64,000 nt of DNA from Candidatus Latescibacterota bacterium (GTDB lineage Bacteria > Latescibacterota > UBA2968 > GCA-2709665), in NCBI GenBank assembly GCA_965226795.1, contig CBDDDZ010000002.1, forward strand, positions 512,001-576,000, read 5' to 3'. The notes under the pieces were generated by a model, which was not told the DNA's origin, ran no database searches, and saw only the letters and a list, made by a program, of their open reading frames with translations. This document shows, one piece after another, positions 19,761 to 41,341 of the stretch. The position numbers were made by a program, and so were the translations under genes. Numbering within the stretch: the stretch's first letter is position 1; each line of letters begins with the position of its first letter.

Positions 19761-19828
19761 ATCTTACCCACTAAAACAGTGTGGTCGGGATGCGATTCGG
19801 GTGAATTTGGGATTGCAGAAAACCATTC

Positions 19829-19898: not shown

Positions 19899-19925
19899 TT
19901 TCTGTCGGCCGTGAGGGGAGTTTCG

Positions 19926-20711
19926 ATGTCCCGGAAGAGCGCCATCGAGTGGACCAACGGCACCTGGAACCCGGTTACCGGATGTACGAAGGTCAGCGCC
20001 GGCTGCGATCATTGTTATGCGGAACGCCTATCCGAGCGCTTTCGCGGCGTCGAGGGGCATCCTTTCGAGACCGGCTTTGATCTGACGCTTCGGCCCGCGC
20101 GCCTGGAACAACCCCTGCACTGGCGTCGGCCACAGCTCATCTTCGTCAATTCGATGAGCGATCTGTTCCACAAGGATATTCCCACGGAGTACATCCATCG
20201 CGTATTTGAAACCATGGAACGTGCCGACTGGCACATCTACCAAGTGCTCACCAAGCGCAGTTCCCTGATGCGCCGCTTCGTTCAGGATCGCTATCCCGGC
20301 GGGGCGGCACCCTCCCATATCTGGCTGGGGGTTTCCATCGAAAACGACGCGGCGTTGACGCGTCTTCGCCACCTCAAAGAGACGAACGCGTCCGTCCGCT
20401 TTGTGTCGTTCGAGCCTCTGCTCGGCCCGATGGGGACGGTCAATCTGGAAGATATTCACTGGGTCATCGCGGGAGGGGAAAGCGGACCGGGAGCCCGGGA
20501 GATTAAGCCAGAGTGGGTGCGCGAATTTCGGGATCAGTGTGAGACCCAGCGCGTTGCCTTTTTCTTCAAACAATGGGGCGGTCGAACACCTAAAGCGGGC
20601 GGCAATACGCTGGATGGACGCCAGTGGATGGAGTATCCGAAGATCGGGCAAGGTCAGTTGCCTCATTCGCCCTTAAGGGCGGCAGGGGCGCCCGCTCGCG
20701 ACGAAATTTGA
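19926..20711 (+). CDS. DUF5131 / phage Gp37-Gp68 family three-Cys protein, copy 1
   Basis: [66 protein letters not shown] RBS. Confidence 0.93.
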   Translation: [261 protein letters not shown]

Positions 20712-23700: not shown

Positions 23701-23845
23701 TGAACTCTACCGTATGGCATTGCGAATGCTCAAGATCGCCCGCGCCGCACTTATCTACCTGTCGCTGTCCATGTACCATCAAGAAAATTTAGTATCACCT
23801 TCGACAAATTCCGAAATTACTGTTCAAGGGATGCCGAAGAGATAA
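20732..23845 (+). pseudogene. TPR + LA2681-type HEPN protein interrupted by an IS
   Basis: N-half has TPR (TNLGNSLNAVGRPIEAI) and LFLNPLNDL, LKQEY; C-half has AFRSAYSILDKVA and RNAAEHR; removing 21716-23353 restores GGARIEKQKMAF in frame. Confidence 0.85.
21716..23347 (-). mobile_element. Decayed IS (IS5/IS1182-like DDE transposase remnants), 1632 bp
   Basis: Flanked by direct repeat AGAATT(GA) at 21710 and 23348; GAG...CTC ends; fragments FYEHITSKVDEDIF..GRPN, QIRMDS, QSAHDDDAAFRRK, NLITDV, DGAY, RNNVEA lie in different frames. Confidence 0.85.
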
Positions 23846-24117: not shown

Positions 24118-24879
24118 ATGGCCGACAAGTCTGCGATTGAATGGACCGACGCAACGTGGAATCCAGTTACCGGCTGCACCAAGGTCACACGTGGCTGCGA
24201 CAACTGTTATGCCGAGCGAATTGCCGAACGGTTTCGCGGCGTAAGGGGCCATCCGTTTGAAAATGGCTTTGAACTCACGCTCCGACCAGAGCGGCTTTCC
24301 CAACCGCTTTCATGGAAACGCCCTAGAAGAGTGTTTGTGAATTCAATGAGTGACTTGTTTCACAATAAGATTCCAACAGAGTTTATAGATCGTGTCTTCG
24401 ATACGATGGAGGATGCCGACCGTCACATTTTTCAGGTCCTAACAAAACGAAGCTCGCTTATGCAGAATTATCTGCAGGGAAGATATGGGCACGGGGCAGC
24501 ACCGCGACACATCTGGTGCGGAGTGTCCGTTGAAGACCACACCGCAACCGCCAGAATCCGGCATCTTCAAAAGGCTCCGGTGCCGATTCGTTTCCTGTCA
24601 ATAGAACCACTTCTGGGTCCTGTGGGAGAAATCGACCTGGAAGGGATATCCTGGGTAATTGTAGGCGGCGAAAGCGGTCCAAACGCTCGGCCCATGAAAG
24701 AATGTTGGGTAATCGAAGTCAAGGAACTCTGCAAACGCAATGGGGTAGATTTCTTCTTCAAGCAATGGGGCGGACTGACCTCAAAATCGGGTGGACGACG
24801 CCTCAAAGGGATCGAGTACAACGCCATGCCTGTATACTCTACAGCGGAGAAAAACTGTGAATTTCAACTGGCACCCTGA
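24118..24879 (+). CDS. DUF5131 / phage Gp37-Gp68 family three-Cys protein, copy 2
   Basis: Same motifs as copy 1 (CTKVTRGCDNC, NSMSDLFH, GGESG, FFFKQWGG). Confidence 0.93.
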   Translation: MADKSAIEWTDATWNPVTGCTKVTRGCDNCYAERIAERFRGVRGHPFENGFELTLRPERLSQPLSWKRPRRVFVNSMSDLFHNKIPTEFIDRVFDTMEDADRHIFQVLTKRSSLMQNYLQGRYGHGAAPRHIWCGVSVEDHTATARIRHLQKAPVPIRFLSIEPLLGPVGEIDLEGISWVIVGGESGPNARPMKECWVIEVKELCKRNGVDFFFKQWGGLTSKSGGRRLKGIEYNAMPVYSTAEKNCEFQLAP

Positions 24880-26137
24880 AGAACCTCCACCTTCTATTGA
24901 CAAACACAGCAAAGCCAAACTCGATGTATTACGTAGCTACCTTCGCGCCTATTTCGATACGCTGAATGTCAACCCCAGTCGTGAAGAATTCAAAATCGAT
25001 CTCGTTGATGGCTTTGCTGGGGGAGGCACGTTTCGGGACGGCGAAAAAACCGTCTCAGGTACACCTCTGATTATGCTTGAAGAGTGCAGAGCGGCAATGG
25101 ATAGGTTGAACGAAAATCGCACCAAGCCCCTGCGTTTCGATTCCAAATGTTACTTTATAGATAAAGAAGCCGCCCACACGGATCATCTTCGAAGGGTCCT
25201 ACGTGAGCGAGAGTACGTCTTGGATGATGACAGAATCGTTGTCCGTAACAGCCTATTTGAAGAGGAAGTCGAAAACATCCTGACGGCAATTAAGTACCGC
25301 CAGCCTATCGCCGGTCGCGCGATTTTTCTTCTCGATCAGACCGGATTCTCGCAAGTAGAACTCGGGCTTGTAGCCAGGATTCTGCGCGAATTGCCAAGAG
25401 TGGAGGTCATTTTGACATTTGCAGCGGATGCCCTCGCCAACCATCTTGCTCTCACACCCGAAATGATTAAGATGGTCGCTCCGCTTGAATTGACCGAATC
25501 ACAGATACATGACTTGATTCAACTCAAGAATGGCAACGTAGGAAGAGCACTCGTTCAAAGGACGTTGCGTGAGCATATTCGCTTTGTGACGGGCGCGACA
25601 TACGATACACCCTTTTTCATACGCCCAAGACAGTCACGACGGGCTTTATGGTTCCTCCATCTGTCAAAACATCCAACAGCGCGCGACGTCATGATTCAAG
25701 TTCATTGGGAGATTCAGAATACTTTTGAACACTATGGTTCCGGCGATTTCGGTATGCTGGGTTGGGACACATTGAGGGATCCTGGAGCAATTCCGCTCTT
25801 TAGCTTTTCTGAAATGGACCAAGATAAAATGCGCACGCAGCTTCTGGACACCATGCCGCGGGAACTCTTCAGTTTGGCATCCGAAGAACCTGTCACGATT
25901 GACGCGATGCGGCACAGGTTCGCAAACAGAACGGCTGCCCGTTATTCGGATCTCGATTCAATCGTACTGCAGCTTTTTCGCGAAGGCGAGATTGAGATTC
26001 TGGGTGCCAACGATAGAATCCGCTCAACTTCGCTGTTAAACCTTAGAACTGTTGACCGGATCCAGATGCCTAAGCAGACGCGAATCTATTTCGAGGATTC
26101 ACGCAGAGGTTCGAATCAGGGATCACACAAGATTTGA
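24857..26137 (+). CDS. tcmP: Three-Cys-motif partner protein (SAM-methyltransferase-like)
   Basis: HSKAKLDVLRSYL, VDGFAGGG SAM motif, FLLDQTG; GTG 24857 with GGAG; overlaps DUF5131. Confidence 0.85.
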   Translation: MNFNWHPEEPPPSIDKHSKAKLDVLRSYLRAYFDTLNVNPSREEFKIDLVDGFAGGGTFRDGEKTVSGTPLIMLEECRAAMDRLNENRTKPLRFDSKCYFIDKEAAHTDHLRRVLREREYVLDDDRIVVRNSLFEEEVENILTAIKYRQPIAGRAIFLLDQTGFSQVELGLVARILRELPRVEVILTFAADALANHLALTPEMIKMVAPLELTESQIHDLIQLKNGNVGRALVQRTLREHIRFVTGATYDTPFFIRPRQSRRALWFLHLSKHPTARDVMIQVHWEIQNTFEHYGSGDFGMLGWDTLRDPGAIPLFSFSEMDQDKMRTQLLDTMPRELFSLASEEPVTIDAMRHRFANRTAARYSDLDSIVLQLFREGEIEILGANDRIRSTSLLNLRTVDRIQMPKQTRIYFEDSRRGSNQGSHKI

Positions 26138-26798: not shown

Positions 26799-26999
26799 CT
26801 AAGCTTCTAGTGCTTCCCGAATCGCCTTTTCCATACTTGGGCGAACTTTGTCCATGCTCCTACGGGCGGAGTCCTCAGCCATCTGCAGGATTTCCGCAAG
26901 CTCTTCGCCCTTAGGTTCGGGCGGAGTCGCTATATCAGGCGTCGGATGTTTCTCCTTGTGCACCCGCGCCGTTTTCAACTGGCGTGATGTCCGAGCCAT
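26799..26999 (-). CDS. Small hypothetical protein (66 aa) overlapping the 3' end of the Ntn gene
   Basis: AGGAGG-AAAAGAT-ATG: consensus RBS at canonical spacing. Confidence 0.6.
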   Translation of the reverse strand: MARTSRQLKTARVHKEKHPTPDIATPPEPKGEELAEILQMAEDSARRSMDKVRPSMEKAIREALEA

Positions 27000-28344
27000 A
27001 TCTTTTCCTCCTGAATGAAGTTCTATCGAAATAAGATGGATTTAACTCAGGCGAGAAATAGTGTTTGCGCTTAATCCAAATCAACCCATCGCCCTTCGTA
27101 ATTAACGCAACGTCGGTTGGACCACCAACTGTTTCTTCATCGCTCGATACGCGTCTCTTGAGCGCAGTCAGACTTACAAGTGATTCAGCCATTTCCGCAA
27201 GTTGTTCCTTAGGAAGCATAGCCACCACATTCATAATGGGCTGCGAAAAAAACCGCGCTCCAAACCCTTCGACGCTGTCCATAAAGGAATCGGCTACCTG
27301 AGTGTGATATTGATCCAAGACGTCACGCAGTTTCTCTGTTTCAATATTCGAGTGTTTGCTGAGTGATCGCATCAAGTCGTCAGTGTATTGCTCCAAGTGA
27401 GACACTACAGATCGGTGAAGATAGGGGAGGTAACCAGGTGCTATTCCCTCCATGAATTGATAAACCATATCGATCTGTGCGAATGGCACGATCGCTGACT
27501 GATTGTCTGGGTTGAGAGTCACTTCATGTTTGTCTGGATGAATCTTTAATCTGTTTTGTACCATCCCTTCAACATGTGCTCGCGAAATAGCAGGGAAGAA
27601 ATCCTGCTCGCCGAAACCGGAGACGACAACACCGGAAGTGAAGCCAGAAGGCGGGTGGCGTGTAACCTCATCAAAGAACCCGCATATCGCCTTAACTGCG
27701 ATATAATTGAGTTTTTGCTGGAGCCCTCGCCGAAGATGTAACTGATCAAACACCGACGCGCGTGCGCTTCGAAGGTGCCCACGTAGTGATTTGCGCACGG
27801 ACCTTTCGAACTCCCGGGGCGCACCTTCAATTGCAGGGGCACTCTTGGCTCTTGAGTGATACTCGTCAACGACTTCCTCGGTCAGTTCATGTTCCATCTG
27901 TGCGAATTTTTCAATTTCAAATCGTCCGCTTTCTTCGACAGCTTTAGCGATCGTTTTGTCGATCCTTTGCTGTATTTCCTGTCGAATCTCAGAGAAGATC
28001 TGCTGGGATAAGCGTACGGCATAGTCCAACTGCTGTTGGTCGCTTATTCGGTCACCTATGTGATGTTCCAAGAATCTGCAGAAATCGTTGGCGTACTCGT
28101 GGAGTTTCGCGAAGGTCTTTCTTCCGAGAATACACCGATACTCTTTCACTATTGTTTCCCATGGGATCGACATGAAACTGGCGTTGCCATACACGAGAAT
28201 TCCAACTGGTGCGACCTCGGAGAGAGCGAAGAGTTTATTTGCTGACGAGAAAATCTTCTGATTGCCGCCTGGATATGCTGTAATTGCGCTATCCGCTGCC
28301 AATGCGACAGCTTGTAGATTGAGGATGGCTATTTCGGCAGTCAT
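26935..28344 (-). CDS. Proteasome-beta/HslV-like Ntn-hydrolase with large helical insertion
   Basis: M-T start (Thr1), ALAADSA, ANKLF, C-terminal ETVGGPTDVALITK. Confidence 0.7.
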   Translation of the reverse strand: MTAEIAILNLQAVALAADSAITAYPGGNQKIFSSANKLFALSEVAPVGILVYGNASFMSIPWETIVKEYRCILGRKTFAKLHEYANDFCRFLEHHIGDRISDQQQLDYAVRLSQQIFSEIRQEIQQRIDKTIAKAVEESGRFEIEKFAQMEHELTEEVVDEYHSRAKSAPAIEGAPREFERSVRKSLRGHLRSARASVFDQLHLRRGLQQKLNYIAVKAICGFFDEVTRHPPSGFTSGVVVSGFGEQDFFPAISRAHVEGMVQNRLKIHPDKHEVTLNPDNQSAIVPFAQIDMVYQFMEGIAPGYLPYLHRSVVSHLEQYTDDLMRSLSKHSNIETEKLRDVLDQYHTQVADSFMDSVEGFGARFFSQPIMNVVAMLPKEQLAEMAESLVSLTALKRRVSSDEETVGGPTDVALITKGDGLIWIKRKHYFSPELNPSYFDRTSFRRKRYGSDITPVENGAGAQGETSDA

Positions 28345-28571
28345 AATCTATAGAGCCTTAGTTGTTACCCGAGTTCCGGATTCATAGCAATTGGTGTAGA
28401 TGACCCCGAAAGCAGTCAAGTATTCCTTAAATGCTATAGTGCCACGGTAGCTTTAGGTACCCGAATATAATTTCACGATAACAGACAGAAAAGTCAAATC
28501 TACCCACGTCGCAAACGGCTCGATGCCAGCGCGAACGCGAAAAAGACATTTGCCTTACTGCGGCCAAAATT

Positions 28572-28659
28572 AGACAGCATCAATATCCGTGGATCCCGCC
28601 CCTTCCGTAAAGTGAGGTGCCGCAACAGGCGACAGCGTGCGTTTTGGAATTGCGCGTTC
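28572..28659 (-). pseudogene. Relic of the RM gene's extreme 3' end
   Basis: Translates ERAIPKRTLSPVAAPHFTEGA..ILMLS vs intact ERKVLGRTLKPEEVAYFAEVARRIAGILMLT; DNA aligns by eye to ~31370-31461. Confidence 0.7.
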
Positions 28660-28682
28660 GACCGCAAAACCCTATCCCCAAA

Positions 28683-28877
28683 TTACTGGGACGGCTGATT
28701 CTCCGACTCAGGGTAAATGCGGCGAGCAGAATAACGAACGTACTTGCGACCGGAAGCCTCTTGTCTAGCTCGAATATATTTGAATATCGCTTTCACGTCG
28801 TAGCCAAACCGAGCCGCGTGTTCCTCCCGGACGGCCCGCACTTCGGTGATAAGCGGGTCAACCTGAAGTGTCGTCAT
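28683..28877 (-). CDS. Small protein resembling PIN-toxin partner (antitoxin-like), orphan
   Basis: DPLITEVRAVREEHAARFGYDVKAIF pattern; GGAG RBS. Confidence 0.65.
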   Translation of the reverse strand: MTTLQVDPLITEVRAVREEHAARFGYDVKAIFKYIRARQEASGRKYVRYSARRIYPESENQPSQ

Positions 28878-28880
28878 GTA

Positions 28881-28981
28881 TTCGAGTACTCCATTGCCAC
28901 CGAGTTTGCCGTCTCAAATGGCGACGGGGACGATGCTTCACAGGGCATTTTGGTTACAAAGATGTCAAACGGCACACTGCC
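28881..28981 (-). pseudogene. Relic of the RM gene's 3' region
   Basis: GSVPFDIF / VPVAI*DGKLGGNGVL vs intact GEATFDIY / IPAAIWNYKVGGYQVL. Confidence 0.65.
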
Positions 28982-29162
28982 TCGTTGGATCGCGTTCGGC
29001 TGCCAGTTATTGGTCGCCGCCGCAAACCAATCGCGGCATTCGCTTGCATTGTATAAAGAAGATGGCGCGAAGATCCATCAGCTTTTTCGGAATCGATGCC
29101 ATGGCACCAAGATCTTCTACGCCTTTATCCGCCACCATCAGCGTTTGACCAAAACTCGACCC

Positions 29163-30017
29163 TTAGTCGATTGACGCGTATAGGTCATCCGCAATTTCGT
29201 CCGTGGTCTTCAAGGACGTATTGAGAGCGACTATGTCAGCCAACATAGGACTGAATTGGGCTACCTCATCCTTTGAAATTTCGTGCCAAACCGGCAAGAT
29301 CCGTGCAGCGCCTTCGCCTTCGAGTGACAAAAGGCCATTAAGCTCTCTTTGAGGCCACTCCTTGTTGAAAAAGTGTCTTGACAATACAACAACTCCGAAG
29401 CGTGAATTCGCCAGCCCTCGATCAATCTCTCTACGCAAGCTGTCCCCAACCTTCAGAGTTAATTCGTCGTACCATACCCTTGCTCCTCTGGCTTGAAGCG
29501 CGTCTGCCAATCCGCGAACAAATGTATCCTTGTCTTCACCAGCGTGCGAGATAAAGAAGTCGTAGCTGACTTGCTGTGCTTCCGTGGAGGCGGTAGGGAT
29601 ACCCGACGTGTCGGCACGGTGCCGGATCTCACTCGAGATCTTTCTTTCGTTATCCTCGGGCTCGTGAATCAGCTGTTTTTGTGCGCCTGAAATTCTCTTG
29701 CGCTCTTTTTCGTCTTCGCGGGCCTGACGCTCCTGGTTAGAACTCAGGTTTTTGGACTTGGCAGCGATCTTGCCTGAGATTTCGGCACGTTTCTTCTGGA
29801 CGGTCGCGAGTTCCGCGGTTGAGCGCTCAATCTTCTTCAACTCATTCTGGAGGGCCGAGGCGCTATTTGCGCGAGACGCCGCTTGGTTTGCACGATTGAT
29901 CCCCGCATGAATATCGGCTTCTTTCTTGGTCTCCTTTGCCTCAGCCTTTCGGAGATCGGCGATTTCCTTGATTAACCGATTGATCTGGTTTGTGTAGTTC
30001 AATTCCGATTCCCCCAT
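29163..30017 (-). CDS. Coiled-coil + TIR domain protein (predicted NADase)
   Basis: YDFFISHA-EDK, VWYDE, GDSLRREIDRGL, WPQRE with catalytic Glu, ILPVWH; charged helical N-terminus. Confidence 0.92.
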   Translation of the reverse strand: MGESELNYTNQINRLIKEIADLRKAEAKETKKEADIHAGINRANQAASRANSASALQNELKKIERSTAELATVQKKRAEISGKIAAKSKNLSSNQERQAREDEKERKRISGAQKQLIHEPEDNERKISSEIRHRADTSGIPTASTEAQQVSYDFFISHAGEDKDTFVRGLADALQARGARVWYDELTLKVGDSLRREIDRGLANSRFGVVVLSRHFFNKEWPQRELNGLLSLEGEGAARILPVWHEISKDEVAQFSPMLADIVALNTSLKTTDEIADDLYASID

Positions 30018-30073
30018 ATAAATCGTTAAAAATGTGTTCCTTATCGTATACGGAATTCGCAACGGGCCGCCTG

Positions 30074-30372
30074 AGTTCCTCGAATTCGCCTCGCTATATT
30101 TGCAAAGCACAGCACTTCCGGGAGTGGCAGTGCCCCGCCCGATGTCGCGCTCACGGTAGAACAGCCGTATCGTTAGGAACTGATAGCCGCCGGGTTAGTA
30201 GGCCCAAATCTCGCCGGCGATGTTGCGCAATAAGGATCCTTAGTTCAGTTAAACGTCCTGCGACTGGGCGCCCAACTCGGGTATCGCCGCTCCCACTGTG
30301 GTGGGCTTGTCCTCAGTAAAGGCGCCTTTACACCGATCATTGACATGCCGGGACAACATCGCATTGCCCAAA
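30074..30372 (-). pseudogene. Relic of the last ~100 codons of the RM gene
   Basis: VGAAIPELGAQSQDV*LN*GSLLRNIAGEIWAY*PGGYQFLTIRLFYRERDIG / PEVLCFANIARRIRG vs intact LGVAMSILGEATFDIYLNDKAFWRNIPAAIWNYKVGGYQVLKKWLSYRERKVLG / EEVAYFAEVARRIAG. Confidence 0.85.
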
Positions 30373-30432
30373 CGATTGCGTTGGAATTCAGGTACTGATC
30401 GCAAGCATCGGCATCAGGTCTTTGTGGAAGGC

Positions 30433-31344
30433 TCAAGATCCACATTCTGACACCGTCGGACGCAATTTGGAAGGTTTTATCACCTCAAATATGTAATCGG
30501 CCAAGAAGATCGTATTCAAGCTGTTTTGCTGTGAAGAGTAGACAACCAAGCCGTGTATGGCCGCATGGCGATTTGGGACCGGGTTATTCTTGAGGCTTTC
30601 AAGGTGCTCTTCGCACTTGACATCTGTAAACAATCCGAAGATTAAGTCGTCACTCTCGGACACAGGTTCTTCTCCACGCTCGATTCTTTTCTTTTCTCGG
30701 ACGGCTTTTGTCAAATGTGCGAATATGGTAAGATCGTAGAGACCTCGATGAATAAATGCATCAATGGATTTGTCGTCATCGGTCAGCCTTTTGATAAACT
30801 TCCTGTATCCAATAGGTCCGATTCTGTTACCGAATAGTTCCTTGCGAAACACTCGTTCGATTTCTGGAAATAGGACACGGCATACGCACCGGTAAAGTCC
30901 GGCCTCGTGAGCATCGAGTGCTTCGCGAAGGGTCGCTTTCGCCTCTCTATCAACCCTGTAATGTGATATTCGGGCTTCTATTTTGGCACGGACATTCTGC
31001 CAGTTGCTCGTGTAGTAGTCATCGAGTTTGTTTCGGATCAATTCAGCGTCGTCGCCATATTCCGCGATATTATCGAATGGCGTTGTGTAGTGTGGCAACC
31101 AACCGGCCCTTCCAATAACCTCGCAACTAAGATTCCACTTCTGGAATTCGACAATTACGTTTGCTATCTGAGAAGCATGACTTTTCAGAAAATGACACCA
31201 CGCTCGCAATAGCGGCTCGATCTGGCGGCTCATTTCTTTAAGGATGCCGGAGGTAACCAACCACTTTTTGAACCCGTCTGCAAACCCATCGGAGTCAAGA
31301 AATGCTCGAACTTCCTCGGGACTATTGAATTTTCCCCCGTACAT
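30433..31344 (-). CDS. HEPN-like protein directly downstream of the RM gene
   Basis: NRHAAIHG (R-x4-H), EALDAHEAGLY...FPEIER; GAGGAG RBS inside the RM 3' end, 5 bp gap. Confidence 0.7.
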   Translation of the reverse strand: MYGGKFNSPEEVRAFLDSDGFADGFKKWLVTSGILKEMSRQIEPLLRAWCHFLKSHASQIANVIVEFQKWNLSCEVIGRAGWLPHYTTPFDNIAEYGDDAELIRNKLDDYYTSNWQNVRAKIEARISHYRVDREAKATLREALDAHEAGLYRCVCRVLFPEIERVFRKELFGNRIGPIGYRKFIKRLTDDDKSIDAFIHRGLYDLTIFAHLTKAVREKKRIERGEEPVSESDDLIFGLFTDVKCEEHLESLKNNPVPNRHAAIHGLVVYSSQQNSLNTIFLADYIFEVIKPSKLRPTVSECGS

Positions 31345-31349
31345 CAGAA

Positions 31350-34300
31350 TTACTCCTCGCTTCTTCCCGTCAACATAAGTATCCCCGCGATCCTCCTCGC
31401 CACCTCCGCAAAGTACGCCACCTCCTCGGGCTTGAGCGTCCGTCCGAGCACCTTCCGTTCGCGATAGGATAGCCATTTCTTGAGCACCTGGTAACCGCCG
31501 ACTTTGTAGTTCCAGATTGCGGCTGGGATGTTGCGCCAGAAAGCTTTGTCGTTCAGGTAAATGTCAAATGTGGCTTCGCCCAGTATAGACATCGCTACCC
31601 CAAGGTCTCTCCTTTCCTCCGCCGTGTACTTTCGTTGTTTGACGCGGCCCTTGCCCGGCATCACGGGCTTGTCCGAGCCATAGCGCCCCCGACCCCACCC
31701 GGCGGTAACCGCGAAGTCTTGGTCCGACAAATTACGATTATCGACAGTAGAAGGTTCGGCAATAGCCGCGAATTCTCGTTGCAGTGTGCCCTCGGTCACA
31801 CCTGGAACGGCCTTACTGGTGTCGAGTAGCCGTGCCAATTCGCGGCCCCTCGTCGCAGATGCTTTGAGGGACTCCCCCTCTGTGCCTTCAGTCTTGCCAT
31901 CGGGCCACCCCGGAAGAGGAACGCGAGGCCATTCCATCCTCAACGCGCCAGCATTGGCCTCCCGGTAAGCGGGATCGTGAAGAGTGGCAAGGACATGATG
32001 AAACAGGTCCTCCACATTAAGACTAAGGCATCGGAGATAGTTCGCGGCTTCAATGGTTAAGTTCCACGCGGGCTGCTTGGTATTGGTTTCGTTTTCATCA
32101 TAGCGAAGGTAGGCGGGAATGCAAGTCGCGCCACGGTCCATTAGATCCAGACAGCCGAGTTGGGAGATCACCTGAGGTGGCGACCAATCACGACGAGGCT
32201 TGTGTTGTGTGACCAACCACATATTGTTCACGAACACATGTGGCATGTAGTCGGGTACAGGTCGCCCAAGCAGTCCGTGCTTTGCTTCCCAGTAGAGCCA
32301 GCGATGGTCGAACGGCCGGTAGGCATGGGAAACAAAGCGGGTTTCGATTGGGCCGCCGCGTTCGAGCAAAGCGTCGCGTACCGAGCGGGCGTCAGGAACC
32401 ACGAAACCAGAAGAACTCTTCATTGCTGCGGGATAATCTTGTACGATTTGTTCGTGGCTCAAAGCCACGTCGAAATAATCGGCGACCCTTGCCTTTAGCC
32501 TTGCAAGATCGAAGTCAATTAGAAACGAGTCGCGCTTGGTCTGAACGCCCGGAAACGATACCGGGAAGAGATCGGTCAATGCCGGCCATTCAAACCATTC
32601 CTTACTCACGGCCAATGGAAAAAACGGCAGGCCAAGCGGCAAGACAGGCTTAATATTGTGGTAAAGCGTATAAGGTTCTGCCTCCGCCGTCTCATTCAGA
32701 TCTGCGGGCTTGGCTTTTCCCCAAAGATGGCGAAATCCGACTGACTCTGCAGGGGCGTGGTCCGATTTGCGCACGAGTGTCGTAATCGCAGTTCCTACCT
32801 GTATACCGACAGGATCACCATCGGATGAGAAGATGCTTGGATCTGGCGCACCTTGTGGTGTGACTTTGCCGGTCTTGTACTTGTCGCCATTCAAGCAGTC
32901 AATGCGGATCCCGTCGAATTCCGCCAGATAGCGCTCTCGCATTCCTGTGAAAGACAAGCCGTCCAGCCAGGAATAGTTGGAGATGAAACAGACGACGCCT
33001 TGGCCTGTCTTGGCAATGCGGCGTTCCGCCATCCGGAAGAAGCGGACGTAGAGATCGTTCAAGCCCTGGCCTTCAGGCCGGCGCACTCGCTTTGTATTGC
33101 GATAGGCTTGCGACAACTCCCGCTCCTCGTCGACTGCCATGCCAGCGAAACCGTTATAAGGCGGATTGCCCAGTATCACCAGGATCGGCGTGTCCTGCTT
33201 TACCCGGCCGGCGTGGTCCCTTTCCTTTTTCAGTTGAGGAAAAGCATCCATTTGCGAGCCATCGCCCGTGTTCTCCCAGTCGGTCAGCGCATTGGTGAGA
33301 AAGATGGCGGGGCGCTCGATTCCATCATCCGGCAGGGCCGCGTCAAGATCTCTCAAAGCGAGGTCCACAAGAAGATGGGCGACGACGAAGGGCGCAGGCA
33401 TGATCTCGAAGCCGAACACCCGCTTTGTCGCTGCGTGTCTTATTTTTTCGCCGGTGAGAGCGCCGAGGCCTTGTCCTTTCAGATTGGCGGCGATGCGGCG
33501 AAGAACCTCGGCGAGATACGCCCCCGTGCCGCAGCACGGGTCCAGCACGTAGACGTTTTCCGCGGCAAGCCCACCTGCGATCCCGAGGTCGTCCTTGAGT
33601 GACTTATCCACGCGGGCTACCATGTAGCGCACCACTTCAGACGGGGTATACCAGACACCCAACTCCTTGCGCAGTTCTGGGTCGAAGGCTTCCAGGAACG
33701 GCTCGTAGAAATAGGTTACGGCTTCCCCCTCCTGAAAGCGCGCAAAAAAGGCGTCGTGGTTTACCCGGTCGAGCGCAGCTGTTGTCGATGCCAGCACTTC
33801 CTTCAAATCAAGCGTTTCCAGGTACTCGGAAAGTCGGTGAAACAACTCCCGAAGTACCGGCGCTCGTAGTTGCCGCACCGCCTCGAGCCAGGCGAACTTG
33901 TCTGTTCGCTTCTGCGCCCGTGCCCACAGCACCCAGGCAGAAAAAACGCCGTAGAACAACGTCTGCACCATTGTCGAATGAAAGAAGCGCGTTCCTCGCT
34001 CGTCTTCAAAGTGGACACCGAGCGACTCTTCCAGTGCAGATCTTACCGCATCGAGCGAAGAGGTATCCCCGGCGGCTTCGACACGGGCGAGGCCGTCGCG
34101 GGCGTACGACGCAAGTAGCCACGCAAGGTCCTTCGGTTCGGTGATCTCCGCCTGGTGAGACAATGCGCGGCAAAGATATTCGCCTAATCCTGCGCCGACC
34201 TCGTTTGCGAAGGCGCGTGGCTTGTCCAACTTGTGCCAAAACTCTTCTTCGGTGTTGGCGAGACGATAGCGCTCGAGCAACGTCTCTCCACCCGTCGCGT

Positions 34301-34706
34301 CCGGGCCGACGAGAGCGAACTCTCGCAAATTGGTGGTCAGCACGAGGCTGTACCGGTTCAGATAGCGCACGACTTGGCCCCGAACCTGCGATGCGCCCAT
34401 ATTTTCGGCAGGGGTTTTAACTTCCACTACGCCCCGTTCCGGCGTTTGTCCCTGGCGTGGACGACCCTTCTGGACCTGCTTCGCCTCGTAAAGGCCAAAA
34501 TCGGGATGTCCCGCACCCTGGTCTGCCAACTCGCTTACACAGAACACCTTTGGCTTCAGCGACGCGCCGACGGCGTTCAGGAGATTCGCCAGCGGACCAT
34601 AGCTCGAGCGCTCTCCAGTCCCGCCGCCTGTCGCACGGATTCGCCCCAAATCGTTGAAGTAATTCTCAACCGCTGTAACGAGTCGTGATGTCGTTCCCTT
34701 GTTCAT
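31350..34706 (-). CDS. Type IIG/ISP-like restriction-modification fusion (N6-adenine MTase with C-terminal specificity domain, no helicase)
   Basis: N-terminal PD-x-EVK nuclease-like motif (HPDFG...VEVK), YEPFL-AFD-ELRKELGVWYTP, DPCCGTG, GNPPY, YRPFD-RW, GGYQVLKKWLSYR. Confidence 0.9.
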   Translation of the reverse strand: MNKGTTSRLVTAVENYFNDLGRIRATGGGTGERSSYGPLANLLNAVGASLKPKVFCVSELADQGAGHPDFGLYEAKQVQKGRPRQGQTPERGVVEVKTPAENMGASQVRGQVVRYLNRYSLVLTTNLREFALVGPDATGGETLLERYRLANTEEEFWHKLDKPRAFANEVGAGLGEYLCRALSHQAEITEPKDLAWLLASYARDGLARVEAAGDTSSLDAVRSALEESLGVHFEDERGTRFFHSTMVQTLFYGVFSAWVLWARAQKRTDKFAWLEAVRQLRAPVLRELFHRLSEYLETLDLKEVLASTTAALDRVNHDAFFARFQEGEAVTYFYEPFLEAFDPELRKELGVWYTPSEVVRYMVARVDKSLKDDLGIAGGLAAENVYVLDPCCGTGAYLAEVLRRIAANLKGQGLGALTGEKIRHAATKRVFGFEIMPAPFVVAHLLVDLALRDLDAALPDDGIERPAIFLTNALTDWENTGDGSQMDAFPQLKKERDHAGRVKQDTPILVILGNPPYNGFAGMAVDEERELSQAYRNTKRVRRPEGQGLNDLYVRFFRMAERRIAKTGQGVVCFISNYSWLDGLSFTGMRERYLAEFDGIRIDCLNGDKYKTGKVTPQGAPDPSIFSSDGDPVGIQVGTAITTLVRKSDHAPAESVGFRHLWGKAKPADLNETAEAEPYTLYHNIKPVLPLGLPFFPLAVSKEWFEWPALTDLFPVSFPGVQTKRDSFLIDFDLARLKARVADYFDVALSHEQIVQDYPAAMKSSSGFVVPDARSVRDALLERGGPIETRFVSHAYRPFDHRWLYWEAKHGLLGRPVPDYMPHVFVNNMWLVTQHKPRRDWSPPQVISQLGCLDLMDRGATCIPAYLRYDENETNTKQPAWNLTIEAANYLRCLSLNVEDLFHHVLATLHDPAYREANAGALRMEWPRVPLPGWPDGKTEGTEGESLKASATRGRELARLLDTSKAVPGVTEGTLQREFAAIAEPSTVDNRNLSDQDFAVTAGWGRGRYGSDKPVMPGKGRVKQRKYTAEERRDLGVAMSILGEATFDIYLNDKAFWRNIPAAIWNYKVGGYQVLKKWLSYRERKVLGRTLKPEEVAYFAEVARRIAGILMLTGRSEE

Positions 34707-34804: not shown

Positions 34805-37800
34805 TCACGTCATGCCACGTTCTGCAGCGAGTTCCTTCATTTGTTGCTTGAGTTCACAGGAAAGGTCGGCTTTAAGGAGTTTGTCGACGAGTTCCTTGCC
34901 ATTCGACCACGCGCGAGTACGTGATTTGATTCGGCCCAAATGAATCAATAGCTTCGCAACCGCCTCAGGATGACGATTCCACAGATCGCCCTTTTCAATC
35001 ATATACACTATCCGGTTACTATCGGCACTTGGATCGGTAAACTCCGCCAGCTGCATCTGAACGGCCAAATTTACCGCCTCCGGAAACACCCCTTTCAAAT
35101 CAGGCAACCAGCAAAACATAATTCCCATTTCACCGTCACCAAGTCGTTCGGGTACACCTTGAAGGCGATTCTCCCAATAAGCCTTGAGCCAACGATTCCA
35201 CCATTCCTGTTGCTGGGAACCAGTCATGTCTTCTAAATGACTCTTGATAGATAACGCGAAGTATCTCCGAGCATTTTCGTTACAATGCGTAAAGAACGTA
35301 GGAATCCAAATGTCAAGGGGATCGTCGGAATAATACGCCAGCATAGTGAGATAGCGTCCAATAAACTGTTTTCGTTCTTCACTCGATGCGTCACAGACAA
35401 TGTGTGGAACAGCGTCAAGGAATGCGTCTCCCATCAGTTCAGCCACGGGCGGGCTGAGAGGTCCATACAGAAAGCCTCCCCAAAGTGCTTGATAGTCGTC
35501 ACCATCGGCATGTTTTGTAAGCAAAGGAATCAAATGTGCCTCTGTCCAATCTCGATCGACACGTAGTAGAAAGGAAAGATACCGCGCGAGGACTGATCTA
35601 CCCAATCTACCGGCAAGTGTCTTATCCTCGACGATATCTGCTAGTGCGTCACGATAGTCAGAGCTTAGGCCATCGGACGCCCCGGCTTGCTGTTTTCGCC
35701 AGCAATTTAGGCTATTCAGCCAGAAACCGGCGAGAAGACCGGCAGTGCTGTCAATCGCTGCTGTAAGCCAGGATCCGATTTCTCTTCGCGCATCGTCGCG
35801 GTCACTGTAGCGCCATAGGTTAGCGGCAATCTGGTTAACTTGTGTAAGCGGTATGTGGGTATGTTGGGTCTTGTCATTCGTCACCAACTTGTAGAGGAAT
35901 TCAGCGATAGGACGTGCACAGTTTCTTTGTAATTCGATCCTTTCCAATTGCTGAATGACTTGACGAATTTGATTCTGGTCGAGTTCTGTCTCCGACCACA
36001 ACCGCATTAGAGTGTTCCATAAATCGGTATCCCAGTTCCGTCCACCGGCCAATGCTTCCGCCAGATCGATTCCCCAGTGGAATTCCGTCTTCGCCGCCTC
36101 CGAGACGGCCATGTTAAGCCCGAGACGGTCTGGTTCATGAATTCCTGTATCCTGGAATGACACTAGTTTTTCGGCCCATTCCTCAGCGGGTTTTGAAAGG
36201 AGTTCGTCTACGGTCCAGGGGCTCTGGTGGCCTCCCGGGACAGAACTCATCCAGTGAGTGAGATCAGGACGGTCGCTCGGTTTAAGTTCAGGATACCTTC
36301 TCAGCACATCGTCCAGAGCTTCTCTGGTGAAGGGACATTCGTGTGCCGCGGTATAGAGCCAATGGAACCATTGGAAATGATAATCGGCTGTACGGCGCTC
36401 GGTCACGTCATCTTCTTCTGCTGGCAGACGATGGGCTTGAATTTTCTCGATAACGGCTTTACGGCGGCCCCCATCGATATAGCAGTAAATTTTCTTCAGA
36501 ACCACGAACAGTTCATGATGCGCAAAAAAGTCGTTCAGATCCATCCTGGAAAGCAGCCAGTCGATTTTTTTGTTCGGATTTAGGTCCTTGCGAAAGGATA
36601 ATGTATGCACTGACATACGGCGCAAAAGCGGTGACTCCTCCCTTGCAAGTCTATCACACCATTGCGCGGCCGCTTCCTTGCAATTCGATGCGAGCCATTC
36701 CAGACAGTCCCGCGCAGAATCGATCAACACATCAACGGTCTCCAGATACTCGTCCTGTTCGTGTGGTTCGATGGCGCTTCGGGTATAACTGACCGGATTC
36801 CAATCTCGGGTGGCCTCCTGCCATGCGCTGAGTGTGCGGTGCTGTGCAGTCAGATGCCCGATAACGGATGCAAGTAGCGGCTCCGCTACACGATCGAGAT
36901 TTGGCTTCAATCCTTCAATCCACAGTTTGTTGATCGTGAAGTGCTCGCTCACAAAGCCCAATTCCACATCAATACGGGGACTCTGTTCTTCCTCATCGGA
37001 ATCGGGCCACGAAAACCCCCGCTTGACCACAACGCGGTTTGCTGCCATCGCATCGAAGACATCGACGACACGGTCAAAAAGCTTGCGATTAACGCAATAT
37101 TTGCCTAACCACAACAACGGATGTTCCTTTTCCAATCCTGCGGGAGCAGTAGCAAGTAGAAGGGAAACCCAGCGGGACAAGGTATCTGAATCACATGGCG
37201 TATCATTCTTCAACGCGATGGATCGACACAGTGCGTCCCAGAATATCGGATGTGGCTGCACATTCCGCCGTCCGATCAACAGAAAAAGCTCATCTGGATG
37301 ACTGTATGCAAATCTCTCGGCTAGCCAGCGTCCCAATAGCCCATCACGCTCACTTAGCTCGGTGGTTCCAAACATGCCGGCGAGAATATGGTGCTTGTCT
37401 AGCCAATGGACCCATTCAACTGAAACGGCGGCAGCCGTAAAGAAGCGTGTCTTCACTGGATCCTTGAGCGCGTCCTTAATGAGATCTATTTCTTCTTCAT
37501 CGAGTGGAGGCGGATTCGTGGCGATTTCCGTAATCTCTCGCTTCCAGTCGAGGATGCTGCGCCTCGTATTCTTCGCAAGACCGTTAACACCCCTATAGAG
37601 AGCGCCGTGGTCATTATCGGACGATTTCACATAGGTGATTGGCTCAATCCCGAGATACTGCCAACGACTGTCGTCAGTTTCGTGGGTGACCGCGAAACGA
37701 CTCTCCGTTTCGTCTACCGGCAAAGCACGTGACAGATAGTTCATGATCGTATCGTTGTGCCTGTAGCCCACGAAGAGCACCGTATAGGATCGAAATACAT

Positions 37801-38360
37801 CCACAAGAAATCGCCGTGCCCAACCCTCGGTCAGATACGCGCGACCGAAGTCTGCGTCCGTGAGAACCATGTCTTTTGGTCGACTGAGCATCCCGTGCAC
37901 ATGGACGATCCCCGTGAAGTGTCCACCTGGAGGCAGGGCAGGAGATGTAAAGACGTCAGGCCGCGATACGAACAAACACTTTTCCGCTTGCTCGAATAGC
38001 GTATCGAAATTCGTTGTGACGATGCGAGGCGCCATGGATTCCGGATACAGCTTCAGCAGATCTCGGTGCAGGTCAGCGGGTTTCGGGATTTTTCCACAGC
38101 AGTTTTTTTTCAACTCTTCTGCCGCGATCTTATGTACGTCCACACCTTATGTGTTTGAGCCTGCCGAGAAAACGGTCCTCGGGTTCGTTTTCTTTCAACT
38201 CTTCCCCAGTGCCTTGCGCAATCGCCATTGCCAACTTCGTGAAGCTCGGAAGACTCGCAGGTTTTCCCATTGAAACTCCCGCACCGGCGAAAACGACAAG
38301 CTTGTCGTCACGCAATGCGTTTAATATTGGCCGCGGGAAATCTAAGCCGCCTATTTTCAT
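34805..38360 (-). pseudogene. SIR2 + DUF4020-type (Dsr1-like) defence NADase with one extra base at ~38147-38150
   Basis: VFAGAGVS in the 76-aa ORF; TTNFD, HVHG, DFGRAYLTEGWARRF, LFVGY in the 1112-aa ORF; removing one base gives 1184 aa. Confidence 0.85.
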
Positions 38361-38418
38361 AGCTTACTTGTCCGACAAAATCGTGAAACATGGATGGGTG
38401 CCGTTTGCGCAAGGCCGC

Positions 38419-38983
38419 TCAATCCGGCCCTTCGCCGACGGTGTTCTTTTCCCAGATTTCCCCGAGCGCGTATTCCTCCACCTATGTGTCGAGTTCTTCG
38501 GCGTGGGGCCTCTCGAACTCCGTGGCTTCTTTGTTTCGTTCCACGACCACGATATCGCCCGGCTCGAAGCTGTCGACAAATGCGCTGGACTGCGTGCTGA
38601 CGAGCACCTGCGCATGCCGGCTTACGGAACGAAACAACGAGGCAATCACATCAACCGCGCACGGGTCCAATCCTAGTTCCGGTTCATCCACCACAATCAG
38701 AGACGGCAGTTTCTCAGCAGGCTGTAACAGAAGCGAAATCAGGCAGATGGCTCGCAAAGTGCCGTCCGAAAGCTGATGAGGACCGAAAACGAGGTCGGAC
38801 TCCCGATGCCGCCAATTGAGAATGACGTCCCTTGTATCGGCGGGCTCCAGATCGAAGTCATCGAAAAACGGCGCCACCTGCCGGATGGTGGTCACAATCC
38901 GCCGGTAGTCGGTTTCACTATTGGACTTGAGCGCGTAAAGCATGGCTGCGAGGTTGCCCGCGTCGGGCTTGAGCCAGCGGTTG
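38419..38983 (-). pseudogene. 3' half duplicate of the AAA_21 ATPase gene
   Basis: Near-identical DNA to 40241-40805; TGG>TAG nonsense at 38482-38484; lacks Walker A half. Confidence 0.9.
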
Positions 38984-39074
38984 CTCCGCCGGTCGCACGT
39001 ATTCGTCGAAGGTCAGTGAAATAGCTCTCAACTGCAGTCGTCAATCGGGTCGCTGGGTTGGTCGTGATACGCAT
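38978..39074 (-). pseudogene. 5' stub of a second RM gene paralog
   Basis: TRLTTAVESYFTDLRRIRATGG vs SRLVTAVENYFNDLGRIRATGG at the start of 31350-34706. Confidence 0.85.
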
Positions 39075-39137: not shown

Positions 39138-39629
39138 ATGGCCGGCATGAAACCTGTCACCTGCCGGCGAAAGTTTCCCTTGCCGACGCAGACCGCCGAC
39201 ATGCAAATGAAACCCTGCCAGATCCTGAACCAGCGAATCGCGAGCATACTCGAACCTCGCCCGGAGGTTCTTGAGGCTTATCTATTCGGCTCTCGCGCGC
39301 ACGGCCGGGCACAGTCCCACAGCGACATCGACGTCGCCGTTTACATCGATGAAACTGTCGTTGAAAAGAGCACATTCGGGTATCGGGCACAACTCATCAC
39401 AGAGATCATGGCCGGCCTCCACAGCAACGACATCGATCTCCTGATTCTCAACCAAGCCCCTCCAACTCTGTACTACCATGTGCTGCGCGACGGCATACGT
39501 GTCTTGTCCCGTGATTTGGCGGCGACAACGACGCGGGAAGGCCGTGCGGTTTCCCGATACTGCGACTTTGTTCCCCAGCTTGCAAAAATGGATGCGGTGT
39601 GGCGTTTTCGCTTCGGTGGTGAACGGTGA
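39138..39629 (+). CDS. mntA: Minimal nucleotidyltransferase antitoxin (start may be 39201)
   Basis: YLFGS-x10-DID motif; IDLLILN-APP. Confidence 0.88.
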   Translation: MAGMKPVTCRRKFPLPTQTADMQMKPCQILNQRIASILEPRPEVLEAYLFGSRAHGRAQSHSDIDVAVYIDETVVEKSTFGYRAQLITEIMAGLHSNDIDLLILNQAPPTLYYHVLRDGIRVLSRDLAATTTREGRAVSRYCDFVPQLAKMDAVWRFRFGGER

Positions 39630-40063
39630 CTCCCGGACTACCGAATCCCTCTGTCGTGCGGCGGCACCTCACCGCATTGAGTTTCGCGGTTGGCAACTTG
39701 CGTCGGCATTCGGATACGACGGCCGCTCAGCTCCGCGACAATTCCGATCTTCGCTGGTTAGTCGAACGCGGCCTTCATCTCTGTGCCCAGAACGCGCTCG
39801 ACGTAGCAACCCATCTGGCATTATCCGCCGGCCTTGATGCGCCGGATTACGCAACCGCCATTGACCGACTTGCAGAGATGAACGTGTTACCCGATGATTT
39901 CGCAGCGCACTTTCGGGCTGTGGCGGGTTTCCGCAACGTGCTCGTCCACGGCTACCTTGACGTCGACCTCGATCTGATCGGGCAACTCCTCGTCCGGCAA
40001 CTAGATGACTTCGAGACGTTTGCTCGCCACGTCGAACGATGGCTTGCCAGACTTGTCGATTGA
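39626..40063 (+). CDS. hepT: HEPN (DUF86) RNase toxin
   Basis: GFRNVLVHGY (R-x4-H-x-Y); GTGA overlap with MNT. Confidence 0.9.
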   Translation: MTPGLPNPSVVRRHLTALSFAVGNLRRHSDTTAAQLRDNSDLRWLVERGLHLCAQNALDVATHLALSAGLDAPDYATAIDRLAEMNVLPDDFAAHFRAVAGFRNVLVHGYLDVDLDLIGQLLVRQLDDFETFARHVERWLARLVD

Positions 40064-40240
40064 GGAACAGCGCATTGAGATGTGTCGGCCGGAGCAGTGC
40101 TTTGACTGTCAACCAGGCGGATCTTCGATTGTCAATCCGGTCGGTCTCAGCTCTCAGAGGCAGCGCGCCTTGCAATAAAAGTCGAGTGTTCAGCCACTTC
40201 TTGAGATACTCTGTTTGATCTTCCGCCAGGTGTCGAACCC

Positions 40241-41341
40241 TCAATCCGTCCCTTCGCCGACGGCGTTCTTTTCCCAGATTTCTCCGAGCGCGTATTCCTC
40301 CACCCATGAGTCGAGCGCTTCGGCCTGGGGCCTCTCGAACTCCGTGGCTTCCTTATTTCGTTCCACGACCACGATATCGCCCGGCTCGAAGCTGTCAACG
40401 AATGCGCTGGACTGCGTGCTGACGAGCACCTGCGCATGCTGGCTTACGGAACGAAACAACGAGGCAATCACATCCACCGCACAGGGGTCCAGTCCGAGTT
40501 CCGGTTCATCCACCACAATCAGAGACGGCAGTTTCTCAGTAGGCTGTAACAGAAGCGAAATCAGACAGATAGATCGCAACGTACCGTCCGAAAGCTGATG
40601 AGGACCGAAAATGAGATCGGACTCGCGATGCCGCCAATTGAGAATGACGTCCCGTGAATCGGCGAGCTCCAGATCGAAGTCATCGAAGAACGGCGCCACC
40701 TGCCGGATGGTGGTCACAATACGCCGGTAGACGGTTTCACTACTGGACTTGAGCGCGTAGAGTATGGCTGCGAGGTTGCCCGCGTCGGGCTTAATCCATC
40801 GGTTGTCTCCGATGTAACCATATTGCCGGACTCTCGAAGTCGGCGATGTATCGTGGAAATGATAGACGCGACAACGATTCAGCAAAACCCTCAGCGTTTT
40901 CGCCGTGGGCTCTCCTGTTTCTGCCACTTCTCCAATTTTCGTTTCCAGATGGCCAACTCCCAGTTGTACCGTTTTCGGGTTGGGATACCCTTGTTGGTGG
41001 AACGCAAGTGTTTCTTCAGCAAAAATCAGAGAATCGCCGGCGGCGTGGAAGAGTCTCATATTGTAGGTGTCCGTTCCGTTCTCCACCTCAAACACCATTC
41101 TCGCTTCCAGTTGAGGCGTCACTCTGGGGCCGAAGTGCAGGTTTCCCGTGGCCCGACCGGTCGACCCGATGTGTTGCTGGAGGCGTCCGCCCATCAATTC
41201 ATTCACCAGCTTGAAGAAGGCAATGAGATTGCTCTTGCCGACTCCGTTTGCGCCGATGAGGACGTTGAGCGGTCTGAGTTCCAATTTCATCTCTTTGATG
41301 GACCGAAAACCCTTAATCTCGACATTCTTCAGCGTTGTCAT
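40241..41341 (-). CDS. AAA_21/ABC-type ATPase
   Basis: GFRSI, GANGVGKS Walker A, YHFHD, LSDGT, VVDEPELGL, VSTQS. Confidence 0.92.
   Translation of the reverse strand: MTTLKNVEIKGFRSIKEMKLELRPLNVLIGANGVGKSNLIAFFKLVNELMGGRLQQHIGSTGRATGNLHFGPRVTPQLEARMVFEVENGTDTYNMRLFHAAGDSLIFAEETLAFHQQGYPNPKTVQLGVGHLETKIGEVAETGEPTAKTLRVLLNRCRVYHFHDTSPTSRVRQYGYIGDNRWIKPDAGNLAAILYALKSSSETVYRRIVTTIRQVAPFFDDFDLELADSRDVILNWRHRESDLIFGPHQLSDGTLRSICLISLLLQPTEKLPSLIVVDEPELGLDPCAVDVIASLFRSVSQHAQVLVSTQSSAFVDSFEPGDIVVVERNKEATEFERPQAEALDSWVEEYALGEIWEKNAVGEGTD

Follow-up and report, generated by a model that had tools for sequence, protein, structure and literature searches.

Decayed ends of a DrdV-like restriction-modification gene precede different cargo genes in a Latescibacterota defence island: probable traces of gene capture without an integrase

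The stretch of DNA analysed here (the window) comprises 64,000 nucleotides from a Candidatus Latescibacterota bacterium (assembly GCA_965226795.1, contig CBDDDZ010000002.1, positions 512,001 to 576,000) and holds a defence island that adjoins a TonB-receptor gene and has a GC content of 46-55% as compared to 58% for the genome. An intact restriction-modification (RM) gene of this island is followed on its own strand by a HEPN-like gene and then by three tail relics, i.e. decayed copies of the 3' end of the RM gene, each of which stands before another cargo gene; upstream, a head relic preserves the start of a former RM allele (Table 1). The original prediction, made from the sequence alone, had proposed that modules consisting of an RM 3' end and a cargo gene recombine repeatedly behind the RM gene, push older modules downstream and swap specificity regions, all without an integrase. 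The relics do lie on one strand (minus) and in the order that had been given. The island recurs, its content shuffled, in seven or more genomes of the genus; related genomes and loci are designated below by G and L numbers.

Table 1. Features of the island, with positions in the window
Feature	Position	Strand	Remarks
RM gene	31350..34706	-	intact, single chain, 1118 aa; proposed recombination anchor; nuclease, connector, N6-adenine methyltransferase (MTase), target recognition domain (TRD)
Cargo 1, HEPN-like gene	30433..31344	-	R-x4-H motif, neighbour context
Tail relic 1	30080..30325	-	spans RM residues about 1025-1108, with stops and one frameshift of 2 nt
Cargo 2, coiled-coil and TIR gene	29163..30017	-	Pfam TIR_2, PADLOC PDC-S66
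Tail relic 2	28884..28971	-	cut at the KKW codons, where it runs into the start codon of cargo 3
Cargo 3, 64-aa protein	28683..28877	-	partner, likely antitoxin, of a PIN-like gene
Tail relic 3	28569..28659	-	last ~30 RM codons; start probably near 28697; weakest of the three
Cargo 4, 469-aa protein	26935..28344	-	probably N-terminal nucleophile (Ntn) hydrolase (proteasome-like) fold; own ~150-nt upstream region
Head relic	38978..39074	-	first 32 codons of a former RM allele, G013-type start
Second copy of HEC-01A-like ATPase 3' half	38418..38983	-	93% identity with 40240-40811; joined to head relic, forming the left end of the incoming block
Sir2/Dsr1-like gene (upstream cargo)	34805..38360	-	between head relic and RM gene
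HEC-01A-like ATPase	40241-41341	-	resident island part
MNT-HepT toxin-antitoxin pair	39138-40063	+	resident island part

The RM protein carries the Pfam domains Type_ISP_C and N6_Mtase and is matched by the PADLOC model REase_MTase_IIG (E 1e-90); residues D69, E95 and K97 and the motif N514-P-P-Y are invariant across 56 homologues. Its best match in the PDB is 7lo5 (1029 aa; E 1e-36), a distant relative which we take to be DrdV, a type IIL enzyme, consistent with the length of 1029 aa. No helicase-like ATPase of superfamily 2 was found in the chain by Pfam or PADLOC, and LlaGI and LlaBIII match residues 330-652 only. The lack of a helicase, together with 7lo5 as the best structural relative, argues on sequence grounds that the gene is a DrdV-like type IIG/IIL gene and not a true type ISP gene, so that the IIG half of the predicted IIG/ISP-like label is retained and the ISP half is dropped. 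The likeness to DrdV lies in this structural match and in the domain order, given in passages of the DrdV paper as nuclease, connector, MTase and TRD (10.1101/2021.01.06.425610).

The relics were detected with a DNA profile of 77 RM tails, from which the window's own gene was excluded, and by tblastn with the window's own tail. Relic 1 was recovered by tblastn (39% over 67 aa and a frameshifted piece, E 2.4e-8) and by the profile (104.5 bits; E 1e-31 in the window and 9e-30 genome-wide). Relics 2 and 3 are not significant in a single-query tblastn (E 6-8; 7.7 for relic 2), and profiles were therefore required for them; the tblastn test that had been suggested thus supports relic 1 and leaves the other two unsupported. 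With the profile, relic 2 reached 17.9 bits (E 2e-5 in the window and 1.8e-3 genome-wide), the third-best match in 5.4 Mb, and relic 3 reached 10.6 bits (E 3.5e-3 in the window and 0.3 genome-wide, below two chance-level matches). A reciprocal profile of relic 2 orthologues from four genomes had its best match within the last 260 nt of 65 of the 68 independent RM genes. The corresponding profile of relic 3 matched the tail in 3 of 68, and relic 3 therefore rests also on its junction, described below. The three relic spacers each outscored 1000 of 1000 dinucleotide shuffles, while one of two control spacers was equalled by 1 of 1000 shuffles (2.8 bits) and the other was without a match. The spacers are thus decayed copies of the RM 3' end, as had been predicted, relic 3 being the weak case. 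A contig of 4925 nt from a public run covers 27091-32015 without differences; it probably comes from the source sample, and so it checks the assembly only. A reading of relics 2 and 3 as one collinear tail split by the 64-aa gene was provisionally set aside in view of the separate RM-PIN-64aa units and the joints between 64-aa gene and tail found elsewhere.

The position of such copies was surveyed in related loci. In a first, unselected set, the RM gene was tiled in eight profiles and compared with 85 upstream and 88 downstream flanks (E<=0.1). The last tile gave 14 matches in 9 loci, all downstream, and the first tile gave 5 matches, all upstream, every one of them on the strand of the gene; the six middle tiles together gave 4 matches in 3 loci. 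The set was then extended to 109 loci by adding every full tail match of a class-wide search and removing duplicates (L124, L145, L151, L155, L158, L167 and L173), and those without a whole RM gene were left out (G011, G016, G019, G024, G033, G035, L076, L114, L126, L140-L144, L146, L147, L149, L150 and L172). At E<=1e-3, tail relics account for 22 matches, which fall in 16 of the 108 downstream flanks and in no upstream flank, and head relics for 9 matches in 9 of 104 upstream flanks and none downstream, all on the gene's strand. Reversed-sequence controls gave no head or tail match at this threshold, and no opposite-strand RM copy was found at E<=0.1 in the 109 loci. These loci are kin that share junctions by descent, and the counts are not counts of independent events. 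In a second RM subfamily, about 30% identical, downstream tail relics were found in 2 of 21 loci; its 'head' matches adjoining the gene are start-calling artefacts and were ignored.

As had been anticipated, the genes downstream vary among related loci and further tail relics are present, with arrays of two to four relics in G001, L083, L084 and L137. The relics start at about 60-490 nt before the end of the RM gene, and some starts recur near residues 996 and 1054-1056. The noted shortening and decay of distal relics is seen within the window and fails across loci, where a rule of decay with distance was rejected (score versus distance, rho -0.20, p 0.37, n 23; G001 and L083 run the opposite way). 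Partial RM genes occur in other forms as well. L141, L142, L143, L144, L146 and L147 hold solo RM tails with no whole RM gene within the 20 kb examined, and the solo tail of L144 occupies the same chromosomal slot as the intact RM genes of L139 and L164. Head-plus-tail mini-genes (L034 919-1701, L033 13637-14414 and L140 about 9600-10070) join RM residues 1-135, or a shorter head, to residues 996-1115, or 968 onwards, with the middle deleted. At L165 (13825-14682, minus strand) a 285-aa open reading frame (ORF) opens with an RM head relic, so that captured genes may acquire a new N-terminus from a start left behind in this way.

The origin of the relics is indicated by their divergence and by the genes behind them. 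A significant excess of third-codon-position differences relative to the gene of the same locus was found in 10 of 15 alignable relics (17 tried), with a share of 53-78% as compared to 47-64% for pairs of intact alleles. Identity of the relics to their own-locus gene is 69-94%, the fresh repeats of L080, L117 and L137 being 94, 92 and 89% identical, respectively. Relic 1 matches the allele of G015 best (72%, versus 69% for the window's own), and the best match of the G008 relic is the allele of G006. Of 26 relics compared with 102 intact ends, 4 clearly and 2 weakly share the DNA behind them with that behind an intact RM gene elsewhere. The far relic of G001 precedes the start of the HEPN-like gene that the window has behind its intact RM gene. 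Judged by the third-position excess, the foreign best matches and these next genes, the relics are old RM gene ends with their old neighbours, displaced former alleles, which agrees with the predicted displacement of 3' ends together with their downstream genes.

The junctions of the window record part of its history. Identity to G013 is 96.4% over 41393-38978 and 97.9% over 28559-25800, and 78-79% between. The RM gene of G013 begins exactly at the window's head relic, which is joined to the second copy of the ATPase 3' half via a 6-bp microhomology at 38978-38983. The drop in identity between the flanks and the fusion of the head relic therefore indicate that a G013-like interior gave way to a block of about 10.4 kb, or that replacement took place in both genomes in turn, the change being not fully polarised. 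Other joints between head and ATPase lie at different positions in G001/G010 and in G008, with 4-10 shared bases by eye. Downstream, the 64-aa gene and then a tail relic meet at one shared joint (about 8 shared bases) in L138, L139, L157 and L162, and different genes follow it in these loci. An internal deletion in L157 leaves the very piece that makes up relic 3, and the window, G013 and G002 are in register with it (by eye; pairwise BLAST is not significant), and relic 3 is read as a decayed form of this junction. At L171 the same pair lies upstream, between head relic and RM gene.

These observations are probably explained by capture at the RM gene through homology at one end and microhomology at the other. 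Incoming DNA would recombine by homology in or beside the RM gene, presumably in a RecA-dependent manner, and its other end would be joined illegitimately through a few matching bases. A joint inside the tail of the old gene would shift that tail and its next gene downstream, cargo arriving upstream would strand the old gene's head upstream, and a joint inside the next gene would truncate it and leave no relic. One homologous arm and one microhomology joint would thereby give the polarity of heads upstream and tails downstream. A cargo-plus-tail unit, once formed, would carry homology on either side and could pass from genome to genome, by ordinary recombination or in the form of a small circle, and so one joint would come to stand before many genes and tails would be exchanged apart from the TRD. 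Relics that were long and near-identical would cause the cargo to be lost again, so that those surviving would be short and diverged.

Uptake of DNA and recombination by the host would be the presumed route; comEC and dprA are present in the genome. No tyrosine integrase lies on the window's contig, the four found genome-wide being all on contig C5. Neither the window nor the intervals between RM gene and relic yielded an integrase in the scanned ORFs, which for the intervals were 80 of 144 called ones with 5 more, and in a second set 33 of 144; serine recombinases were not searched genome-wide. The expected lack of a linked integrase is thus borne out. Of the predicted repeated capture that pushes modules downstream, the displaced ends and the missing integrase stand, whereas the specificity swap and a general decay gradient do not.

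Several points weigh against this explanation. The third-position share of relic 1 is 44% (p 0.13, not significant), and relics 2 and 3 were not alignable for this comparison. The replaced block holds the whole RM gene, and the homologous arm of the last event may adjoin relic 3. Microhomologies of 4-10 bases mark plain deletions too. The TIR gene was not found behind an intact RM gene with the window query in 132 class genomes or 32 metagenome loci, nor the Ntn-like gene in 168 phylum genomes. A tail relic is detectable in only about 10-15% of loci, their shared descent makes the polarity count overstate independence, and the second subfamily has one same-strand upstream tail in 21 loci (L224, E 8e-7). 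No event in progress was seen, joints between tail and relic being absent from the contigs of four runs, although contigs drop rare forms. The genes comEC and dprA are also present in 10 of 14 control genomes, and their presence does not show competence. The homology-facilitated illegitimate route is rare in experiments, according to the part of the Vibrio study available (PMC5361080).

Among the alternatives, recombination of an intact tail with a relic could free a circle of tail and cargo, which one crossover would insert at an RM tail elsewhere, as proposed for rhs in the accessible part of PMC2935791. Circles would fit the shared joint of 64-aa gene and tail before different genes, the short relics of variable length, and the exchange of tails apart from the TRD (L054 versus L162). 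They need a pre-existing relic and so leave the first joint unexplained, as well as the 10.4-kb replaced block with its microhomology at the left end and the 5'-truncated cargo (PIN remnants), and no circle joint was seen in the contigs of four runs. As the source of the relics, circles are unlikely; they can act as a second step of the capture by homology and microhomology. Island variants with two RM genes in tandem might also have come first, most of the spare gene being removed later by microhomology deletions. Full-length tandems exist (three copies in L119, two in L067), the mini-genes of G033, G035 and L140 show that internal deletions occur, and the ATPase 3' half is duplicated in the window. 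However, deletions falling at random in a tandem would be expected to leave some heads downstream and some tails upstream as well, and none of the 9 heads and none of the 22 tails is so placed, the one exception being in the other subfamily; this origin is considered improbable.

Local duplication of the RM end at each insertion, as a long target duplication followed by neutral decay, was already disfavoured and has a very small probability. For several fresh relics (L080, L117, L059, L058 and L084) the best match lies in their own locus, an internal fragment of L059 shows no third-position excess, and RM-linked long target duplications have been described, as the part of PMC2853133 at hand reports. 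The third-position shares of the 10 of 15 relics resemble those of intact allele pairs instead, relic 1 and the relic of G008 have their best matches among foreign alleles, and relics retain genes that follow intact RM genes elsewhere. A site-specific recombinase acting in trans, integron-like or island-like, with the RM tail as its attachment site, is likewise very improbable: the recurrent relic starts near residues 996 and 1054-1056 would suit it, yet starts are spread over more than 400 nt with no fixed crossover site, and an integrase is absent from the window, the contig and the RM-relic intervals, within the ORFs scanned and with the same limit on serine recombinases. The capture at the RM gene by one homologous arm and one microhomology joint is thus retained as the probable origin of the array.

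The relics do not store or swap specificity, contrary to the original prediction. The hypervariable block of the RM protein spans residues 803-902 (mean pairwise identity 42-44%), and within it D854 and R858 of the window align with D803 and K807 of DrdV, which contact bases according to the passages available (10.1101/2021.01.06.425610); all tail relics begin at residue 952 or later, past this block. The block itself is exchanged, as 73 of 138 pairs with at least 93% identical MTase show TRD loops less than 60% identical, and L054 and L162 share 100% of the MTase and of the TRD loop with a tail 92% identical. Alleles swap the specificity block, but not via the relics, which are scars and possible second homology arms and not silent specificity cassettes. 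Allelic diversity of the TRD in type IIG enzymes is reported in the part of PMC2853133 available. The window's RM gene is a patchwork, in which nt 201-400 are 100% identical to G013 and G008 and the remainder 37-97%; this 100% identity shows recent exchange between species. Three full-length RM genes stand in tandem in L119 (6275-17305) and two in L067 (6651-13315), and the three L119 copies are 94-100% identical up to residue 800 and 40-56% in the specificity loop, i.e. stacked specificities. At L046 of G012 (1160-2267) a 1.1-kb insertion interrupts the RM gene near residue 340, and the Sir2 gene of G001 is split similarly.

At 60-71% identity the RM family is found in many phyla (best 80 of 503 loci), with records from Latescibacterota, Chloroflexota, Alpha- and Gammaproteobacteria, Acidobacteriota, Nitrospirales, Cyanobacteria and others. 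A sponge is named in one title among these records, and most hosts are presumably sponge symbionts, going by their bin names. Each of four metagenomes holds hundreds of near-identical RM fragments (585-1042 records), and in run X1 the summed depth over the MTase is about 1700-2200 versus 3.5 for the host contig, which is not a copy number. Plasmid relatives amount to 10 records, all below 60% identity and thus distant only, and no carrier vehicle was identified among them. With near-identical RM copies in co-living bacteria of many phyla, the genes beside one copy could perhaps be captured beside another, and the RM family might tentatively be regarded as a community-wide landing pad without an integrase, the relic-bracketed cargo being a true cassette that would move between families and phyla on both sides of the gene. 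Such a landing pad might conceivably serve as an integron-like engine of defence-island growth that uses host recombination alone.

The labels predicted for the cargo genes hold to different degrees. The TIR gene is supported by the Pfam and PADLOC matches, the HEPN label by a conserved motif, and the Ntn label by an N-terminal motif and a sub-threshold lead. The HEPN-like gene has the R-x4-H motif, which we take as a HEPN motif, conserved in four homologues, with no Pfam match, and a single-sequence fold of its protein was unusable (predicted local distance difference test 40). It stands behind an intact RM gene in G013, G002, L073 and L160 and behind a relic in G001, and the order HEPN, relic, TIR recurs in G002. 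Its ribosome-binding site falls within the last codons of the RM gene, and therefore, speculatively, tails may also be kept as translation signals. The 469-aa protein has no Pfam or PDB match and a sub-threshold Atlas lead to Proteasome PF00227 (0.89); with an N-terminal Thr motif, which we assume to be a sign of Ntn hydrolases, it probably has this fold. The Ntn-like gene occurs without RM context in G016, G011 and G110, and in L209/L213 (G013) a copy with 97-99% identity to that of the window has a frameshift near residue 210.

A PIN-like gene (a weak assignment, E 0.005-0.01) and then the 64-aa gene stand directly behind the RM gene in eight loci (L051, L055, L060, L063, L064, G019, L138 and L157). 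The 64-aa gene of the window is read as the orphaned partner, likely the antitoxin, of a lost PIN-like toxin gene, and the joint of relic 2 at the KKW codons probably reflects deletion of the remaining tail and of that toxin gene. Genes following relics or tails in the survey include HEPN-like, TIR, Schlafen, Mrr, ApeA, PIN pair and pentapeptide genes, on either strand, and 77 first ORFs of the slot behind the RM gene fall in 65 clusters by crude calling. The captured cargo probably consists of anti-phage genes.

The general mechanism is already known from Rhs and type VI secretion system (T6SS) arrays; new in this locus are the two-sided polarity and the sharing of cassettes across phyla, and it further contributes the comparison of codon positions and a cassette whose course could be traced. 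The RM array has the same-strand 3' fragments of variable length, each before a different gene, that are seen in Rhs, contact-dependent inhibition (CDI) and T6SS arrays, and fails their other traits, there being no variable functional tip in the relics and no cognate immunity gene downstream. Orphan cdiA-CT/cdiI modules are a related case of displacement. The T6SS arrays of Vibrio cholerae arise by sequential displacement through homology-facilitated illegitimate recombination, and as far as the part of PMC5361080 available describes them, they share a conserved upstream anchor, modules inserted behind it, old genes and sometimes an old 3' end shifted, and no integrase. Here, in contrast, the anchor is an RM gene shared across phyla, capture occurs on both sides with heads left upstream, and the cargo consists of unrelated defence-type or toxin-antitoxin genes instead of cognate immunity genes. 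Rhs displacement, in the accessible text of PMC2935791, resembles the RM array in an intact gene followed by decayed same-strand 3' fragments of variable length with lower-GC genes between; Rhs fragments, however, include the variable tip of the toxin, and their identity to the upstream core is near-complete, whereas RM relics hold only the conserved end behind the specificity loop, at 69-94% identity.

Hotspots of horizontal gene transfer free of mobile genetic elements diversify by recombination at flanking core genes (PMC5635113), and these and the Escherichia coli immigration control region yjiA-yjiN (PMC12707154) share with the RM slot a fixed position, high turnover of defence genes and no integrase, in the portions of both papers available. 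Unlike them, the anchor here is an accessory gene within an island, at many unrelated chromosomal sites in many phyla, and insertions add instead of replacing, leaving datable scars. RM long target duplications, too, are RM-linked direct repeats without a mobile element, but in the available part of PMC2853133 the repeats are near-identical, 45-49 bp long and flank the RM genes, whereas the repeat in this island, derived from another allele, is an end of the RM gene itself and brackets the cargo. The inversions of type I hsdS, type II RM and BREX pglX genes likewise involve partial RM 3' copies beside an intact gene; in the part of PMC9881135 at hand they have inverted repeats, a recombinase and silent TRD variants, while here the copies are direct, lack the TRD loop and have no linked recombinase. 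The RM relic array is therefore not an RM inverton or an RM long target duplication, nor is it an integron, because it has no linked integrase and a variable crossover site. The literature searched gave no account of arrays of tail or head relics beside RM genes, supplements and most subscription papers lying outside the search, and the DrdV passages seen make no mention of them (10.1101/2021.01.06.425610).

How defence islands without integrases keep gaining genes is an open question, for which the locus gives a concrete anchor, and the array is a concrete case for the integrase-free hotspots as outlined in the parts of PMC5635113 and PMC12707154 available. Its scars record the order of arrival, the two-sided polarity offers an easy way to tell anchored capture from tandem addition followed by deletion, and the slot behind the RM gene supplies a list of candidate anti-phage genes.

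Among the neighbouring features, the resident part of the island (39138..41341) is 96% identical to G013. The Sir2/Dsr1-like gene is split in the window by a frameshift at 38149, which is lacking in the contigs of four public runs and is probably an assembly error in an A run. The spacer 40064-40240 is a remnant of the DUF4276 partner of the HEC-01A-like ATPase, a partner that is whole in L164 and L140; its LKKWL-like sequence was rejected as a tail relic, as the profile of its orthologues matches the tail of 1 gene among 68 and the spacer itself aligns to the beginning of the DUF4276 gene. No tRNA was found in the window, and promoter and terminator scans gave chance-level results only. A gene with TPR and LA2681-like HEPN parts (20732-23845) lies in two pieces (20732-21886 and 23366-23845), separated by ~1.5 kb of transposase-like debris (by eye; no Pfam match). 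A DUF5131 and GMT-wHTH pair (PADLOC PDC-M30) occupies 24118-26137 and stands directly behind the RM gene in L054 and L127; a second DUF5131 gene at 19779-20711 is 69% identical to the one in this pair. A dispersed repeat of 45-75 nt occurs around the island at 46808-46852, 19829-19900 and 16265-16337, its copies being 81-87% identical and in both orientations.

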